A program made the translations under genes and the position numbers. A stretch of DNA of 32,000 nt from Candidatus Harpocratesius repetitus (GTDB lineage: Archaea; Asgardarchaeota; Lokiarchaeia; Sigyniarchaeales; Promethearchaeaceae). Under the pieces are notes generated by a model. The model worked only from the letters and a program-made list of their open reading frames with translations. It had not been told where the DNA came from and searched no databases. Location of the stretch: NCBI GenBank assembly GCA_021498095.1, contig JAIZWK010000001.1, positions 2,940,001 through 2,972,000 on the forward strand, given 5' to 3'. Positions 6,632 through 13,943 of the stretch are shown here, piece by piece (position 1 is the stretch's first letter; each line of letters begins with the position of its first letter).

Positions 6632-7912
6632 CTACTTAACTAATACTTTTTCGATTTGCTCTAAAGCCCAATCAATTTCTTCTTTTTTAATAACAATGGG
6701 AGGTGCAAATCTGATTGTAGTAATATGAGTATCTTTTGCTAAAATTCCGTGTTCTTTAAATTGTTCAACAAATTGGCGCGCATTTCCATCAAATTCTACT
6801 GCAATTAACAAACCGCGCCCTCGGACTTCCTTAATAGGTACTTTAGTTTCTTTGGATGCTATTTTTCTTAAGCCTTCTTGAAAATATTCACCCAATTCAG
6901 CTGCGCGCTCTGCTAATTTCTCATCGATCAATATATCTAATGCTTTAGATGCAACTGCACAAGCTAGGGAATTTCCACCAAATGTACTTCCATGAGTTCC
7001 TGGTTTAATTACTTCAGGTCCGACAATATCTGCATTAGTTACAATAGCAGAAACCGGATATACTCCACCACCTAAAGCTTTCCCAAGGAGGAACATATCT
7101 GGCTTTACATTCTCGTGATCTAGTGCAAATAATTTACCAGTGCGACATAACCCAGATTGAATTTCATCTGCAATCATTAACACGTTGTATTTTGAACAAA
7201 TTTCACGGACTTTAGTGTAGTATCCTTTTGGTGGAACCTTAACACCTGCTTCACCTTGGATTGGCTCAAATAAGAATGCAGCAACATTTTCTGGACCTAA
7301 TTTTAAAATTGTATCTTCTAATTCTTGAGCATCACCATAGGAAATGATTTCGAAACCTGGAGTAAACGGTCCAAAATTTCCATAGTAATTTCCATGCTGG
7401 ATATCTGTGCTGAAACCAACAATTGTTATCGTTCTTCCGTGAAAATTATCGCGACAAACAATAATTTTTGCTTGATTTTTCGGAATATTCTTTTTAATAT
7501 ATCCCCATGCGCGTGCAACTTTTAATCCAGTTTCTACAGCTTCTGCCCCAGTATTCATTGGTAGAGCCATAATTCCAGAATTCTTCGGATCATTTAGATG
7601 AGGCCCGACTACTTCACAGAGTTTTTTCAAGTAAGGACCCATTTGATCATTACAGAAAGCACGTGAAGTAACAGCTACTTTTTTAATTTGTTCTTCCATA
7701 GCTTTTATGATTTCTGGATGGCAGTGTCCCATATTTTGACTGGAATATGCTGAAAGACAATCTAGGTATTTTCGACCTTCTGGATCCCAGACCCAGCATC
7801 GTTCTGCTCGAGAAATTACCACTTCTAAAGGATGATAATTATGTGCACCATATTTATGATCCATTTCAATATATTCTTGTGATGTTGGCATGATATTCAC
7901 CATATTTTTCAT
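6632..7912 (-). CDS. rocD: Ornithine aminotransferase (class III PLP)
   Basis: YGAHNYHPL, LSAYS..N.GHCHP, MNTGAEAVET, FHGRT, EPIQGEAG, DEIQSGLCRTG, LGKALGGG (PLP Lys), HGSTFGGN. Confidence 0.93.
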   Translation of the reverse strand: MKNMVNIMPTSQEYIEMDHKYGAHNYHPLEVVISRAERCWVWDPEGRKYLDCLSAYSSQNMGHCHPEIIKAMEEQIKKVAVTSRAFCNDQMGPYLKKLCEVVGPHLNDPKNSGIMALPMNTGAEAVETGLKVARAWGYIKKNIPKNQAKIIVCRDNFHGRTITIVGFSTDIQHGNYYGNFGPFTPGFEIISYGDAQELEDTILKLGPENVAAFLFEPIQGEAGVKVPPKGYYTKVREICSKYNVLMIADEIQSGLCRTGKLFALDHENVKPDMFLLGKALGGGVYPVSAIVTNADIVGPEVIKPGTHGSTFGGNSLACAVASKALDILIDEKLAERAAELGEYFQEGLRKIASKETKVPIKEVRGRGLLIAVEFDGNARQFVEQFKEHGILAKDTHITTIRFAPPIVIKKEEIDWALEQIEKVLVK

Positions 7913-7932
7913 AAAATTAAAAAAATTCCTAT

Positions 7933-8844
7933 TTACTCTAAGTAAAAGGAAGTTCCAGCTTTACCTAGTAATGACGCTTTAATATTGTCGATAGAAGTAA
8001 TAATTGCTTGCTCTCCACCTTCTTCTAAGAAATTAATACAAGCTTGAATCTTAGGACCCATACTCCCAGCAGGAAATTGCCCTTCTTCTAAGTATTTCTT
8101 TGCATCTGATACTGAAAGTCGATCTAATCTGATTTCATCTGGTTTACCAAAATTAAGAGCGACTTTTTCTTCATCAGTTGCAATTATTAGAATATTTGCT
8201 CCAATTTGTGCACCTAAACGTGCTGTTGCTAAATCTTTATCAATAACTGCTTCGACACCCTTGATTTTTTTATTTTCCTTAATTACAGGAATTCCACCGC
8301 CACCACATGCAATTACAATAAAATTATCTTCAATAAGTCGCTTAATTTCCCGATATTGGAAGATCTTATGAGGTTTTGGTGAAGGAACAACACGTCTCCA
8401 TCCTTTAGATGTATGAACAAAACCTGGTTTTGGATGTTCATAGGCAGGACCAATTGGCTTAGTTGGATTCTGAAAAGCAGGATCATCTTTTTTAACTTGA
8501 GTGTAGGTCAAAACGGTTAAAAATAATTTAGCTTTGTTCAATCCAATTCTCATAAGTTCTTCATCTAAGGTAGATTCAATCATAAATCCAATTTGACCTT
8601 GTGTTTGTGCTCCAATAATCGAGAGGGGCATTTTTGGAACTTCATCACATGCTTCTTGTTGAAGTAGAAGATTTCCTGACTGAGGACCATTACCGTGAGT
8701 TATAACAATTTGATAATCACGTGAGAGCTCGGCAATTTGGCGAACAGGCATCCGGATATTCGCTAATTGCTCCTCTGCAGTTCCCCGTTGACCTTTCTGA
8801 ATTAAAGCATTTCCTCCCAAAGCTACGATAAGTGTTTTCATCAT
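7933..8844 (-). CDS. arcC: Carbamate kinase
   Basis: VALGGNAL, THGNGPQ, KPIGP, GGGGIPV, AVIDKD, GSMGPK. Confidence 0.96.
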   Translation of the reverse strand: MMKTLIVALGGNALIQKGQRGTAEEQLANIRMPVRQIAELSRDYQIVITHGNGPQSGNLLLQQEACDEVPKMPLSIIGAQTQGQIGFMIESTLDEELMRIGLNKAKLFLTVLTYTQVKKDDPAFQNPTKPIGPAYEHPKPGFVHTSKGWRRVVPSPKPHKIFQYREIKRLIEDNFIVIACGGGGIPVIKENKKIKGVEAVIDKDLATARLGAQIGANILIIATDEEKVALNFGKPDEIRLDRLSVSDAKKYLEEGQFPAGSMGPKIQACINFLEEGGEQAIITSIDNIKASLLGKAGTSFYLE

Positions 8845-8896
8845 TTTTCACCTGTTGCCATAATCTTTTTTTTAATAGAGACTAAATTATTCCTAC

Positions 8897-9853
8897 TTAA
8901 TTCATTAGATTGAGTAAGAATAGAATAATTGCTTTTTGCACATGCAGCCGATTTTCTGCTTGATCAAACACTATTGATTGTGGACCATCAATTACTTCAG
9001 CAGTTTCTTCATAGCCACGTTTCGCGGGCAAGCAGTTCATAAATATACAATCGGGTTTAGCTGCTTCCATTACCTTGGAATTAACTTGATAAGGCATCAA
9101 ATCCTTTACCCGTTTTTCTTCTTCTTCTTTAGGAATCCCATAAGACATCCAAGAATCTGCATAAATAATATCTGCATCATGTGCACCTTCCATCACATCA
9201 TGAACCACACGAACAACAGCACCTGTATCTTTTGAAATTTCCTTACATTCATCAATTACTTCTTGTTCAGGTGCATATTCAGGATCTGATGGACAAACAA
9301 CATCCATTTTCATTCCAAACATTGCGCACATTCGCATTAAGTCATAAGTAACGTTATTTCGACAATCACCATAAAATGACAGTTTTAAGCCATCGAAAGT
9401 GCCCTTCTTTTCCTTTATTGTTTGGAAATCACATAAGATTTGACAAGGATGTGCAAAATCATCTAACATATTAATTACAGGAACGCCAGCATTTGCAGCG
9501 ATTTTTTGTATTTCTTCTCTCTTAAAAACTCGAGCTGCAATCATATCTACATATCGAGACGCACATTTTGTTGTATCTTCAATAGTTTCTTTGACCCCTA
9601 AGGGAGAATCTTTTACTGAATAGAAAATCGCATGTCCACCTAATTGTTCCATTCCAGTTTCAAAAGAAACTCGAGTTCGCAAAGAAGGTTTTGCGAATAG
9701 CATTAAAAGAGTTCGATTCTTTAATTTTGAAGTATATTTTGGATTCCAACGATCTGCTTTCATTTGAATTGCGTAATCAATGATCTGTTCACATTCAGCA
9801 CGTGTAAAATCCGTTACTTTAGTTAAATGTCGTAAAGCCATATTTTTCACCAT
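8897..9853 (-). CDS. arcB: Ornithine carbamoyltransferase, probably catabolic
   Basis: FAKPSLRTRVSFE, HPCQ, DSWMS, FMNCLPA, FDQAENRLH; adjacent to carbamate kinase. Confidence 0.94.
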   Translation of the reverse strand: MVKNMALRHLTKVTDFTRAECEQIIDYAIQMKADRWNPKYTSKLKNRTLLMLFAKPSLRTRVSFETGMEQLGGHAIFYSVKDSPLGVKETIEDTTKCASRYVDMIAARVFKREEIQKIAANAGVPVINMLDDFAHPCQILCDFQTIKEKKGTFDGLKLSFYGDCRNNVTYDLMRMCAMFGMKMDVVCPSDPEYAPEQEVIDECKEISKDTGAVVRVVHDVMEGAHDADIIYADSWMSYGIPKEEEEKRVKDLMPYQVNSKVMEAAKPDCIFMNCLPAKRGYEETAEVIDGPQSIVFDQAENRLHVQKAIILFLLNLMN

Positions 9854-9895
9854 TTTTTTCTCTTTTTTAGGAAAGTAATTTTTGTTTATTTTTTG

Positions 9896-9913
9896 TCGAT
9901 ATTATTGTATCGA
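9896..9913. promoter_or_regulatory. Operator-like palindrome TCGATA-N6-TATCGA upstream of arcB
   Basis: Perfect 6-bp inverted repeat lying between a minus-strand TATA-like tract (about 9940-9950) and the arcB start. Confidence 0.4.
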
Positions 9914-10044
9914 TAATAATACCTTCTTTCTCTTTAATCTATAATATATTTTGAGAAATTAAAAAAAAGAACTCGATAAATAACTTTACTAAGTCATTCA
10001 TCAATTCTTGTTATTTTTAAATTACTTTTTTATGTGTTTTTCAA

Positions 10045-11394
10045 TTATTTCTTTACATATTTTTCGATGAATTCATCAAGCATTGATTCGATTGAAGGAG
10101 TGCCGATGCATTCAATATCATAGTCAATTCTAACAATTGGCTTATTACATTTAATCAATCGGCTTAAATCAATAGGACTTCCATCAATTACAACATCAGC
10201 TGGAATGGCATTAATTGTGGCTTCTAAATCTTTGATTTGATTTTCATCATATCCCATAGCAGGTACAATTTCTTGTAATTGCTTAAATTCTTCAAAGATT
10301 TTCTTCTGTGATCCTTGTAAATAAGGCTTTGGATCAACAATTTCACAATTATTTTGTTTGGCTGCAATATATCCTGCACCAATTGCCATATGTCCATGTG
10401 TTAAAGTTGGACCATCTTCAACCACAACGACTTTCTTGTTTTTAATCAAATCTGCTTTTCCATCTTGAACTGTTACAACAGAATTACTTCGGATAACAGG
10501 TGCATTTGGATTTAATATTTTCAAATTATCTTCAACAATTTTAACATCTTCTGGTTTAGCAGAATTTAATTTATTTAGTACAAATGCTTCACAAATTCGA
10601 GCGTTTACTTCTCCAGGGTAAAATTTCAGTTCATGTCCTGGTCGTAAAGGATCTACAACTGTGAACATTAAATCTGGGACATAAAATGAGATTTCATTAT
10701 TTCCACCATCAAAGACAATAATATCAGCTTCTTTTTCGGCTTCCTCTAAAATTTTACCATAATCAACACCAGAATAAATTACTAATCCTTGTTCAATATA
10801 TGGTTCATATTCTTCACGTTCCTCAATTGTGCATTTATATTTATCCAAATCTTCATATGTAGCAAATCGCATACAAGTTTGTTCAACAAGATCACCGTAT
10901 GGCATAGGTTCACGCACAGCTACGACTTTATATCCCTTTTCTTTTAAATATCGATAAGTAGCTCGAGAAACTTGAGATTTACCACATCCTGTTCGCACAG
11001 CTGTAATTGCAACAACTGGTTTTTTGGATTTAATTTGAGTAAAGCGGGGGCTGATTAAACGATAATTCGCTCCAGCTGCTAATGCTCGAGCACCTTTATG
11101 CATAACATCTTCATGAGCAACATCACTATACGCAAAAACAACTTCATCAATTTGATTTTCTTTAACGAAATCAACCAAATTTGTTTCAGGAATCATTGGA
11201 ATTCCATCTGGATATAATTTTCCAGCTAATTCAGCAGGATATTTACGTTCAACACCTTCTAAGGTACCCACATTTTGTTCTCCAGCCATCGTAAAGGCGC
11301 GTACATCATATTCCTCATTGTCTCGGAAAACTGTGTTAAAACAGTGAAAGTCAAATCCGAGAGCACCAATAATAACAACTTTTTTTCGTTCCAT
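10045..11394 (-). CDS. arcE: ArcE-like arginine synthetase (cyclic 2,3-diphosphoglycerate synthetase-like P-loop NTPase family)
   Basis: VVIIGA.G.DFH.FN, YPAELAG.LYPDGIP, AVRTGCGKS P-loop, REPMPYG, EEREEYE, DGGNN, VEDGPTLTHG, PAMGY. Context is OTC plus carbamate kinase with no arcA. SD GAGGA at 11401-11405. Confidence 0.8.
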   Translation of the reverse strand: MERKKVVIIGALGFDFHCFNTVFRDNEEYDVRAFTMAGEQNVGTLEGVERKYPAELAGKLYPDGIPMIPETNLVDFVKENQIDEVVFAYSDVAHEDVMHKGARALAAGANYRLISPRFTQIKSKKPVVAITAVRTGCGKSQVSRATYRYLKEKGYKVVAVREPMPYGDLVEQTCMRFATYEDLDKYKCTIEEREEYEPYIEQGLVIYSGVDYGKILEEAEKEADIIVFDGGNNEISFYVPDLMFTVVDPLRPGHELKFYPGEVNARICEAFVLNKLNSAKPEDVKIVEDNLKILNPNAPVIRSNSVVTVQDGKADLIKNKKVVVVEDGPTLTHGHMAIGAGYIAAKQNNCEIVDPKPYLQGSQKKIFEEFKQLQEIVPAMGYDENQIKDLEATINAIPADVVIDGSPIDLSRLIKCNKPIVRIDYDIECIGTPSIESMLDEFIEKYVKK

Positions 11395-11505
11395 ATTAAT
11401 TCCTCAATTTTCATTGTGTATTTCTTAATTTTTATGCAATTTCTACGATTTATAATGTATTGCAGATTCTCATCTATTTTTATTATAGATTAAGTTAATA
11501 GCAAT

Positions 11506-11674
11506 GAATAAAAATGACTCCGCTTTATTCGTTTAAACGTAAAATACGTTCACAAATGAAGGGAGGAAATCTATGAACGAGCAGTGAGAGTGGGGTAGCG
11601 AGTTCTCACAAGACCCCAATACCAAAAAGATCTCGTTCACACTTCTAAATATTATCTCCTAAGTGTGTTCATTT
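11506..11674 (-). ncRNA. Putative structured leader RNA (attenuator/riboswitch-like) or sRNA upstream of arcE
   Basis: Core 11574-11640 is about 49% GC (33/67) in AT-rich DNA. Helices: 11574-81/11632-39, 11584-89/11604-09 and 11591-96/11613-18 (crossing, i.e. pseudoknot), 11638-44/11661-67, 11536-41/11545-50, 11506-12/11524-30. Strand inferred from context. Confidence 0.55.
11652..11672 (-). CDS. Putative leader peptide MNTLRR
   Basis: ATG AAC ACA CTT AGG AGA TAA. Two Arg codons directly before the stop, upstream of an arginine catabolic cluster. Confidence 0.3.
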   Translation of the reverse strand: MNTLRR

Positions 11675-11681
11675 AACCTTC

Positions 11682-11696
11682 TATTTAAAATTTCTG
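11682..11696 (-). promoter_or_regulatory. BRE-TATA promoter candidate (CAGAAAT TTTAAATA)
   Basis: Matches the archaeal BRE cRnaAnt plus TTTAAATA; predicts a start site near 11655-11660. Confidence 0.5.
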
Positions 11697-11973
11697 CTCT
11701 CCAATTCAAAAAGAAGTCAATTTCTCTAATTTGGGATAATGGGGTGAATTATACCTATAATTTTCCAAAAGCAGTTGAATTCAACTATATTCAAGATAGA
11801 CATGAGCCCAAAAAATAAGTAAACACAATAAGTGAAAAAATCAAATATCATCATTTATATTAATATCGCTTTTTTTTTATTCTAGTATCCCAACTTTTTT
11901 TAACAGGAATAAAATTAGAGAAAAAATAAATATCGACTTTCAAGGATAAAAAATAATTATAACTTAAAAAATT

Positions 11974-12294
11974 TTAAATAATTTCTATGTTTTCTTCAGC
12001 ATATCCAAGCTTCAATAAAAATTGTTTTAATTTCTTGCGATGATCACCTTGAATTTCAATAGAATTCCCTTTTACAGTGCCTCCACTCGCACAAAAACTT
12101 TTCGCTTTTTTTGCTATCTTCTTAAGGTTTGCTCCTTGAAAATTGCTAAAGTTCACGACACTAGTTAATTTTCCCCACTTTCTTTTATCAATTGTGATAG
12201 TAATTTTCTGGTCTTCTTGAGCTAATGATTCACAAACACATAACTCGATAGGAAGCGAGCATTTTGGACATATTCCGACTAAATCTTTTGGCAA
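11974..12294 (-). CDS. sui1: Translation initiation factor aIF1 (SUI1), apparent TTG start
   Basis: ICPKCSLPIELCVCE...KRKWGKLTSVV...FCASGGTVKGNSIEIQGDHR. SD GGAGTGA 10 nt before the TTG; no in-frame ATG near the N-terminus. Confidence 0.93.
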   Translation of the reverse strand: MPKDLVGICPKCSLPIELCVCESLAQEDQKITITIDKRKWGKLTSVVNFSNFQGANLKKIAKKAKSFCASGGTVKGNSIEIQGDHRKKLKQFLLKLGYAEENIEII

Positions 12295-12416
12295 ATCTGG
12301 TATTTCACTCCAATAATTAAATATTATAATTAAATTGTATAAAGAACCAGCTATGGATCTTTACTAATGTAAGTTACTATTGATAAAATATAAATCTACT
12401 CGTTAAAATTTGGTTG

Positions 12417-13943
12417 TTATTGGGAATTAGAAGAATTTAACGATTTTTTTATCTTAGTAAAGGTAGCGATAAAAAATCCAGCTGTATGATTATGTAGAGG
12501 GGAAAATCGACTCATAGCTTTTTGAAGAGATAAAATATCACATATATTGGATTTCTTACGTGCTATTTGTTCAATGGAGTAAGAAGAAGGATACCAAGAA
12601 GGAAGAGAGACTGGAATTAGTGGTTTCAAATCATAAATAAAATCAATGAAATGTAATTCATTTTCTTCAGGATACATGCTACATGTGGAGTAGACTATAA
12701 TTCCTCCGGGTTTTAATAATCTAAAGGCATGATAGAATAACTCTTTTTGTAATAATACATGTTTTTGAAGAAAATTGGGAGACTGTCGCCATTTAATACC
12801 AGGATTTGAATGGAATGTTCCACTACCCGTACATGGAGCATCTAGAAAAATCAAATCAAAATTATTTATTTCTCGAAAACATGGATTTATTCCATCAGAT
12901 TGAATAATATTTATATTTTCTTCAAAACTTAAGGATGAAATTAAACGAACACGCTGAGTATGAATATCTTGGGCAATTATCTTATCATTTTCACTAGTAA
13001 ATGACGAAATAATACGTGTTTTACTGCCTGGAGCTGCACAATAATCTAAAATCATTAATGGATGAAAATATTTTGCATTAACAGTACCTATTGCATGAAA
13101 TCCTGCATATATGGAAAGAATTGAAGGAATTTCTTGAATATATCCCCCGATTTTCTTAAAATCAAGTTGTGAATTTAAAATTGGTTTAAATTTACTTTCA
13201 ATAATAAAAAGTGAAGGAAATTTGGAATGTTGTTCAAAAATAATTTGGTTTTTTTTACAGATTCTTTCAAATTTCTCATGATTATTTGATTTAACAAATA
13301 CTCCAAACAATCCTTTCTCATTAATAGTTGAAATCGCCTTAATTTGACCTTTTAACGAATGATCATCCATTATTTTACTCATTTGATTTAAAAAGAAAGA
13401 TGGCATGGCAAACAGGAGACTTTGCTGTTCAATCAACGATTTTCCTTTTAAAGCAATATCCCAATTAAAACTCTTAATTCTCCGATAAAAATAAGAAAAT
13501 TGCTTTTTAATGAGATATTTTGGTAATAGTGAATAAAGTTCCTGCCAAAGATCTTCAAAACTAGCATGTTCATAACGAATTCGATATGCAATATACAAAA
13601 ATATACCATTTTTTAATAAAGATGGAATCTCCTTTTTTGTTTTGACACCCCGAAAAGTTTTTCGCACGATGTATTGAAGTTGATTCTGGTATCTTATTAT
13701 TTCAACTTTATAATGATAAATCCAATTTGAATTAATATTCAAGGAAAAATTAGAAGATATCTTAGAATAAGATTGAGATATCCTAGAACTAGATTGAGAT
13801 ATCTTAGAATTAGAGTGAAAAATCATAGAAAGAGCGCGAAGTATAATGGAAAGGGAATCAGAAGCAATATATACATCATTTTTCTTAAGATTTACGAGAT
13901 TGCTTTCTTTCTTTAATTGCTGTTCAAAATTTTTTTTTTTCAT
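12417..13943 (-). CDS. RsmB/NOL1/NOP2/Sun family RNA m5C methyltransferase
   Basis: LDYCAAPGSKT, IAQDIH, LDAPCTGSG and VYSTCS (both catalytic Cys), AGFFIA. Confidence 0.9.
   Translation of the reverse strand: MKKKNFEQQLKKESNLVNLKKNDVYIASDSLSIILRALSMIFHSNSKISQSSSRISQSYSKISSNFSLNINSNWIYHYKVEIIRYQNQLQYIVRKTFRGVKTKKEIPSLLKNGIFLYIAYRIRYEHASFEDLWQELYSLLPKYLIKKQFSYFYRRIKSFNWDIALKGKSLIEQQSLLFAMPSFFLNQMSKIMDDHSLKGQIKAISTINEKGLFGVFVKSNNHEKFERICKKNQIIFEQHSKFPSLFIIESKFKPILNSQLDFKKIGGYIQEIPSILSIYAGFHAIGTVNAKYFHPLMILDYCAAPGSKTRIISSFTSENDKIIAQDIHTQRVRLISSLSFEENINIIQSDGINPCFREINNFDLIFLDAPCTGSGTFHSNPGIKWRQSPNFLQKHVLLQKELFYHAFRLLKPGGIIVYSTCSMYPEENELHFIDFIYDLKPLIPVSLPSWYPSSYSIEQIARKKSNICDILSLQKAMSRFSPLHNHTAGFFIATFTKIKKSLNSSNSQ
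13755..13817 (-). repeat. 21-bp x3 in-frame tandem repeat in the methyltransferase N-terminus
   Basis: Plus strand AGATATCTTAGAATAAGATTG / AGATATCCTAGAACTAGATTG / AGATATCTTAGAATTAGAGTG; encodes the SKISQSS-SRISQSY-SKIS stretch. Confidence 0.9.

Follow-up and report, generated by a model that had tools for sequence, protein, structure and literature searches.

A conserved structured RNA upstream of arcE-like genes in Promethearchaeaceae, a candidate cis-regulatory leader

The minus strand upstream of the arcE-like gene of Candidatus Harpocratesius repetitus encodes a conserved, structured RNA. Conservation and structure support an arcE-linked, putatively regulatory RNA well; the element is probably a new type of leader that controls its operon in cis, and a candidate for an orphan riboswitch. 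We lean towards the view that this previously undescribed, lineage-specific RNA acts in cis as the 5′ leader of an operon encoding arcE, ornithine carbamoyltransferase (OTC) and carbamate kinase. As far as the searches reached, the motif appears restricted to three Promethearchaeaceae genera and related metagenomic lineages.

Results

Genomic setting

The window, i.e. the whole stretch of 32,000 nucleotides that was analysed, comes from a genome assembled as a single contig of 4.36 Mb with 31% GC; its family also includes Promethearchaeum syntrophicum MK-D1 and Lokiarchaeum ossiferum B35. The element is housed in a minus-strand gap of 579 nt (11395-11973), downstream of an aIF1/SUI1 gene and upstream of a four-gene cluster spanning 6632-11394 on the same strand (Table 1). 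The aIF1/SUI1 ORF was listed with a TTG start and 106 amino acids; the homologue of a relative (L185:298-672) has 124 amino acids, which leaves the start codon uncertain.

The 449 amino acid protein encoded by the first gene of the cluster matched no Pfam or NCBIfam profile. Its homologues carry the names 'cyclic 2,3-diphosphoglycerate synthase' or 'GTPase', which match the descriptions of ArcE in PMC11032458, where TK2200 was annotated as a putative GTPase and had low similarity to cDPG synthase homologues; it was therefore taken to be arcE-like. The product is thus designated ArcE (arginine synthetase)-like by the names of its homologues. The same publication mentions Lokiarchaeota arcE homologues and presents the arginine synthetase pathway, a recent discovery, which conserves energy (PMC11032458).

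Table 1. Features of the arcE upstream region and of the downstream cluster (window coordinates)
Feature	Position	Strand	Remarks
aIF1/SUI1 gene	11974-12294	-	upstream neighbour
BRE + TATA box TTTAAATA	11682..11696 (TATA 11689-11682)	-	matches TTTAWATA perfectly, 15/15; fixed distance to element
uORF MNTLRR*	11652..11672	-	not conserved; probably not transcribed
Predicted transcription start (T|A/G)	11657..11660	-	~23-26 nt after TATA box
A/U-rich lead	~14 nt long, from predicted start	-	not conserved
Invariant 5′ core strand AGAAGUGUG	11638..11646	-	5′ strand of P1 base; identical 15/15
Hairpin P1	11566..11645	-	~80-nt rod; invariant base, covarying genus-specific upper part
Invariant core strand CAUAGAUUUCCUC	11563..11575	-	3′ P1 base + 5′ P2 base; identical 15/15
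Hairpin P2	11518..11565	-	abuts P1 directly; base CCUC[C/U/A]...[G/A/U]GAG covaries
Invariant 3′ strand GAGUCAUUUUU with U5 tract	11510..11520 (U5 11514-11510)	-	identical 15/15
Spacer	11395..11509	-	non-conserved; holds arcE Shine-Dalgarno GAGGA 11405-11401
arcE-like gene, 449 aa	10045-11394	-	ATG at 11394
Ornithine carbamoyltransferase	8897-9853	-	Pfam + NCBIfam
Carbamate kinase	7933-8844	-	Pfam + NCBIfam
Ornithine aminotransferase	6632-7912	-	Pfam + NCBIfam

Anatomy of the element

Two hairpins, P1 and P2, make up the element, an RNA of ~150 nt with a motif of ~137 nt. Judged by its match to the consensus, the BRE-TATA upstream would work as the promoter of the element, and at the usual archaeal TATA-to-start spacing transcription is predicted to begin at ~11660-11657. 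The three invariant strands jointly build the bases of both hairpins. The base of P1 consists of eight pairs, two of them G.U, its 3′ strand being interrupted by a bulge of two nucleotides, AG. P2 is followed by UCAUUUUU, a 3′ tail containing the U5 tract; GAGUCAUUUUU and its U5 may serve as a terminator or as a switching strand. Above their bases both P1 and P2 keep the form of a hairpin while the sequence is wholly different between lineages, the upper part of P2 being made up of unrelated sequences and the distal parts of P1 differing between genera, which leaves the element without a large universally conserved aptamer. The spacer between the U tract and the arcE ATG ranged from 36 to 188 nt across lineages and held no perfect TATA box.

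Within the distal part of P1 (11584-11617), the apical loop can pair with the 3′ strand of the internal loop in 5/5 sequences of the window's genus, as GUGAGA:UCUCAC in the window and as GUGA:UCAC, GGAA:UUUC, UGGG:UCCA and UGGA:UCCG in the relatives. The same bases could extend the nested stem in three of the five, and the pairing was absent from the other genera.

Distribution and linkage to arcE

A BLASTN search against relatives revealed one significant match, with 69% identity over window positions 11768-11505, in a genome of the same genus, where it was also upstream of an arcE homologue. Gathering arcE loci across the family and aligning their upstream regions showed a conserved island upstream of arcE in seven genomes of genera g1, g5 and g6; in the same alignment, genus g3 had arcE and lacked the element. 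The first covariance model, R1, was built from these seven sequences and searched against 151 genomes of the order, which gave exactly one copy per genome in the seven source genomes and no copy in the remaining 144. Pattern scanning of public metagenome and genome contigs yielded 159 stretches, nearly all of them chance matches, and only the metagenomic L092 and already known genomes passed the covariance model. Close ArcE homologues and their contigs added seven further metagenomic or MAG lineages, bringing the total to 15 distinct element sequences (seven genomes, L092 and these seven lineages). Promethearchaeum syntrophicum MK-D1 and Lokiarchaeum ossiferum are among the carriers. L186:1-100 was excluded from the alignment, as it was identical to L185 from mid-P1 onward with unrelated GC-rich sequence before this point and probably represents a chimeric assembly.

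A second model, R2, was run on 151 genomes sampled across the phylum; beyond G000 and G001 there were only three weak matches, which had no arcE nearby and were judged to be chance. With filters off, R2 found nothing above noise at 21 arcE loci from other lineages. Neither the L198 arcE nor the arcE genes of family f3 were preceded by the element. Additionally, the lineage of L198 and L199 (75% ArcE identity), without a leader element, has an ABC transporter gene after the arcE homologue instead of OTC.

Upstream of the f3 arcE genes (L206, L208, L209, L211-L216, L218, L219, L221 and L203) there is a different conserved block of ~95 nt, located ~30-130 nt before the start and ordered GTGGGTYATCATTCCC, ATAGAATTNATAATCTTAATAAT, GTCCCAAATTA, TATGATGATCA. 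A UCAUCAU/AUGAUGA pairing is possible in this block, with some compensatory changes. Only short strings (TTTAG..GTG.G and TTCATAGA) were common to the f3 block and the window's element, and homology between them was not established.

Each of the 15 elements immediately preceded an arcE gene and was oriented as that gene is, with one copy per genome. The gene on the other side varied by lineage and was SUI1, a histidine kinase/response-regulator protein, RsmB or unknown ORFs. Downstream of arcE, OTC was the next gene in seven fetched loci, four of which also had carbamate kinase.

Evidence for a conserved RNA structure

The 221-nt region was more stable than its shuffles (z = -2.3) and forms a GC island of 0.48-0.54 against a background of 0.2-0.3. 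In the 15-sequence alignment, which was fitted to the model and therefore biases pair and covariation counts, 91.2% of cells were paired compared to 37-58% with the 3′ partners slid by 1-3 columns, changes on both sides were present at 11/23 pairs, and the covariation score was 0.252 compared to a shuffled-column mean of 0.123, a value of 0.252 being reached by 0/500 shuffles. Independent MFE folds recovered the bases of both P1 and P2 in 15/15 sequences. The P1 helix (helix 1) was 97% paired with four pairs changed on both sides, as judged by RNAalifold and the pair counts. The base of P2 was 100% paired, and its pair 116:192 occurred as four types (UA, CG, UG and AU). G.U pairs, both invariant and variable, fix the functional strand as that of arcE, since many of them would be C.A mismatches on the other strand. 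The feature is a real, conserved, structured RNA.

The invariant blocks could also be read as protein-binding sites, that is, as transcription-factor operators around the promoter with the hairpins being incidental, and the arcE genes of the sister family f3 are preceded by another conserved block, which overlaps TATA-like words. The compensatory changes and the G.U-tolerant pairing are, however, specific to one strand, the hairpins are conserved where the sequence is not, and 45-180 nt separate the TATA box from the blocks that follow it. An element acting only at the DNA level is on this evidence very unlikely.

A search with Infernal against Rfam, which the sequence-only reading had suggested, returned no relevant match. 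There was no Rfam 15 match in the window at gathering thresholds, including guanidine-I to -IV, TPP, fluoride and T-box, and at E <= 10 the region 10500-13000 gave only an unrelated mir-7 match at 12442-12478. No tRNA or tmRNA genes were found.

Other classes of feature were compared with the region and rejected. A 35-codon GTG ORF across P1 and P2 was not preserved, Promethearchaeum having in-frame stops; the variation of P1 length by non-multiples of three and the stops in the frames speak against any coding function. When the 15 aligned sequences were inspected, there was no ACA after P2 and no hinge between P1 and P2, as an H/ACA guide RNA would have, and there were no C/D boxes. The conserved bulge showed no GA.AG signature of a K-turn in the 15 aligned sequences, and no signatures matching a loop E or a T-box (UGGN and specifier). 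Pairing of the A/U-rich 5′ lead with the 3′ tail was not conserved, and neither was an AGGAG-type antiterminator in the lead.

The upstream reading frame and attenuation

The sequence-only reading had proposed that ribosomes stalled at the two Arg codons of the uORF MNTLRR choose among mutually exclusive helices 1:2, 2:3 and 3:4, as in a leader-peptide transcription attenuator. Every string that it listed was present at its minus-strand position, namely the uORF ATG..TAA (11672-11652), CACACUU (11667-61), AAGUGUG (11644-38), GUGAACGAG (11640-32), CUCGUUCAU (11581-73), GUGAACG (11553-47), UACGUU (11541-36), GAAUAAA/UUUAUUC and the BRE-TATA (11696-82). The uORF and the complementary strings of an attenuator thus exist in the window, and the nearest relative, L092, has a six-codon uORF (MYSNRK) with one Arg codon.

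Comparison with the other lineages divided the cascade, which as a set of mutually exclusive helices is not conserved. Helix 2:3 corresponds to the lower part of P1 and was present in 15/15 lineages with compensatory changes, whereas the partner strands of helices 1:2 and 3:4 were missing in relatives, as were those of the GAAUAAA/UUUAUUC hairpin; all three pairings are specific to this genome. Helix 4:5 is the tip of P2 in the window's genome; P2 itself occurs in all lineages, with sequences unrelated to this tip. Aligning the arcE upstream regions of relatives and scoring covariation upheld the structure and not the Arg codons, which number two in the window and one in L092 and do not occur in the other 13 lineages. 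The Arg-Arg uORF is specific to the window. At the equivalent position G001 has an ORF of 11 codons and L. ossiferum one of 19, neither containing Arg; Promethearchaeum has ATG-TAG, and L187 and L190 have no ATG there, so that the length of the frame ranges from 1 to 19 codons. In addition, transcription is predicted from the invariant TATA box to start ~11-13 nt downstream of the uORF ATG.

Leader-peptide attenuation was rejected because the uORF is not conserved and its ATG precedes the predicted start; with no conserved leader peptide, cognate codons or 1:2/3:4 alternatives, the attenuator logic is unsupported, and we give this explanation almost no credence. The caveat attached to it, that a start inside the uORF would favour a riboswitch or sRNA, is the reading that the evidence favours, and conservation supports a structured, arcE-linked, leader-type RNA that would start at the promoter that had been named.

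Leader of arcE or separate gene

The strong invariant promoter, the compact two-hairpin body and the invariant U-rich 3′ end would also suit a stand-alone sRNA gene, transcribed from its own promoter as a ~150-nt species that ends at U5 and would either work in trans or bind a protein; arcE would then depend on a proximal promoter. Members of the window's genus have an AT-rich spacer of 70-188 nt before arcE, which contains TATA-like words with two mismatches. TATA-like words with 1-2 mismatches are present in the spacers of some lineages, including several in the window and TTTACATA in Promethearchaeum, where it immediately follows the U tract. Given such words, arcE may have a promoter of its own.

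Against a separate gene, the linkage to arcE and the orientation are strict in 15/15 despite changing upstream neighbours. The gap between the U tract and the ATG is only 36-48 nt in five lineages, and the gaps of L190 and L. ossiferum contain no good TATA box, the TATA-like words being no closer than 2-3 mismatches. L190 and L192 keep a canonical SD, GAGGAA, which a proximal promoter would exclude from the transcript. Furthermore, U5 is frequent inside genes and would be a weak stop, and neither a second copy nor a target-like complement was noticed. We consider a small RNA gene separate from arcE doubtful, and the 5′ leader remains our preferred reading.

SD-type words (GGAGG, AGGAG, GAGGA, GGTGA and AGTGA) were enriched 5-8x at -18 to -3 of ORF starts over the whole genome of G000, which indicates that SD-led leadered mRNAs are common in this Asgard genome. 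The genome-wide position of the TATA box, by exact 8-mer, gave only a weak signal. A public MK-D1 'RNA-Seq' run (L155:2000-5200) contained one 54-kb contig of uniform depth over genes and spacers, which behaves like DNA or pervasive coverage and thus cannot show starts, ends or read-through. In two sediment metatranscriptomes the matches were confined to arcE coding sequence of 90-95% relatives.

A passive 5′ UTR structure that senses nothing, such as a 5′ exonuclease stabiliser, a ribosome standby site or a translation element, would fit the long stable hairpins at the 5′ end of the predicted transcript, and no conserved alternative terminator/antiterminator pair was found. Such a structure does not readily account for the ~35 invariant nt of the RNA, as the ArcE proteins of the element-bearing lineages are only 79-89% identical and adjacent helical positions covary freely. 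Invariant nucleotides beside a covarying helix argue for sequence-specific recognition rather than bulk structure, and a purely passive role is improbable.

A possible two-state switch

For a regulatory leader we infer the following scheme, from the start of transcription through a switch between two states to its output and its effector. Transcription would start ~25 nt after the invariant TATA box and give an RNA with a short A/U-rich lead, the long P1, the abutting P2 and UCAUUUUU, in which the functional core would be the ~35 invariant nt at the P1/P2 junction and the distal hairpin parts would be only structurally constrained. In the first state, AGAAGUG would pair with the 3′ strand of P1 itself, CAUAGAUUUC, giving two stacked hairpins with the U tract free. 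In the second, AGAAGUG would pair with CAUUUUU, giving a three-way junction in which UAGAUUUC is unpaired and the U tract is buried. An effector, either an arginine-pathway metabolite or a protein sensing one, would select between the two states, and this choice would set the amount of transcript or translation reaching arcE. Candidates suggested by the operon are arginine, citrulline, ornithine, carbamoyl phosphate, energy charge or a sensing protein.

The three-way-junction fold costs 1.4-3.3 kcal/mol over the MFE in 15/15 sequences, an energy scale typical of switches whose state is selected by a ligand or a protein. If a strand has to match two partners, this would account for invariant helical strands beside covarying pairs. 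The AGAAGUG:CAUUUUU complementarity is not statistically surprising, as a U run pairs with any purine run, and its strands, all of them invariant, show no covariation. A conserved terminator/antiterminator pair of the classical kind was not found in the 15 sequences. A scan for bacterial-type promoters and terminators found no terminator.

According to PMC8716108, archaeal termination works via U tracts and aCPSF1/FttA and not via bacterial intrinsic terminators. Across the whole genome of G000, sense-strand TTTTT occurred at ~5.0/kb inside ORFs of at least 150 amino acids compared to 11.4/kb for AAAAA, and 44% of such ORFs had a T5 run in the 40 nt that follow the stop, compared to 36% for A5. 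As U5 is common inside ORFs, it is unlikely to be an efficient stop on its own, and any termination would be context-dependent.

Two other pairings of the 3′ region were compared by eye and were not conserved. CAUUUUU could pair with the A-rich sequence before the arcE AUG over 6-10 bp in g5, g6 and L190 and 7 bp in G001, with only 4-5 bp in the window and L092. UUCCUC could pair with the SD GAGGAA in only four lineages.

In its most specific form, the scheme would make the element the first Asgard-specific riboswitch class. The ligand, either arginine itself or a metabolite of the pathway such as citrulline, ornithine, carbamoyl phosphate or ADP/ATP, would bind at the invariant junction, where UAGAUUUC lies between P1, P2 and the AGAAGUG/CAUUUUU helix. 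Binding would bury the U tract and so switch on the ATP-yielding arginine synthetase operon. We put this forward as speculation and think it unlikely to be correct.

Discussion

Asgard archaea are the closest prokaryotic relatives of eukaryotes and, to our knowledge, structured cis-regulatory RNAs are scarce in archaea. Our literature search found no described Asgard cis-regulatory RNA or riboswitch. Both of the cultured model Lokiarchaeia, P. syntrophicum MK-D1 and L. ossiferum, carry the element, which at ~137 nt is short enough for direct biochemistry. These organisms live by fermenting amino acids, a way of life for which the arginine synthetase pathway plausibly matters. If the element is regulatory, it would offer a concrete route to studying how Asgard archaea use RNA in gene control and how they terminate transcription. 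Were an Asgard riboswitch with an arginine-pathway ligand to prove true, it would be the first validated natural arginine-pathway riboswitch, with U-tract masking as an archaeal expression platform; a proposed fungal arginine riboswitch has not been convincingly validated (PMC5473149). If the element is only an sRNA, it would still be a new conserved non-coding RNA family for Promethearchaeaceae.

The trp, his and leu leader-peptide attenuators are likewise upstream of amino-acid operons and have a hairpin followed by a U run. The element differs from them in that neither a leader ORF nor cognate codons nor 1:2/2:3/3:4 alternatives are conserved. TPP and fluoride are the commonest riboswitch classes in archaea (PMC5473149), and the element would resemble them as a cis-acting structured leader in an archaeon; however, it matches neither class and precedes an amino-acid catabolic operon.

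Bacterial orphan and transcription-termination riboswitches share more with it: a structure that is conserved and covaries, occurs once in each genome and lies in the 5′ region of a metabolic operon, with an invariant core at a helix junction, a strand with two possible partners and a 3′ U tract. In contrast to these, the element has neither an Rfam family nor a canonical terminator/antiterminator pair; its distal helices are not conserved between genera, and it occurs in an Asgard archaeon.

In Bacillus, some catabolic operons have leaders at which a protein mediates antitermination, for example HutP/hut and the LicT-type RAT sites. These also place a short invariant RNA site by a U-rich stop signal before a substrate-inducible catabolic operon. 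The element shows no sequence similarity to them, and no candidate RNA-binding regulator is encoded beside it, its neighbours being variable. Of the systems compared, orphan riboswitch candidates and these protein-dependent antitermination leaders come closest to the element.
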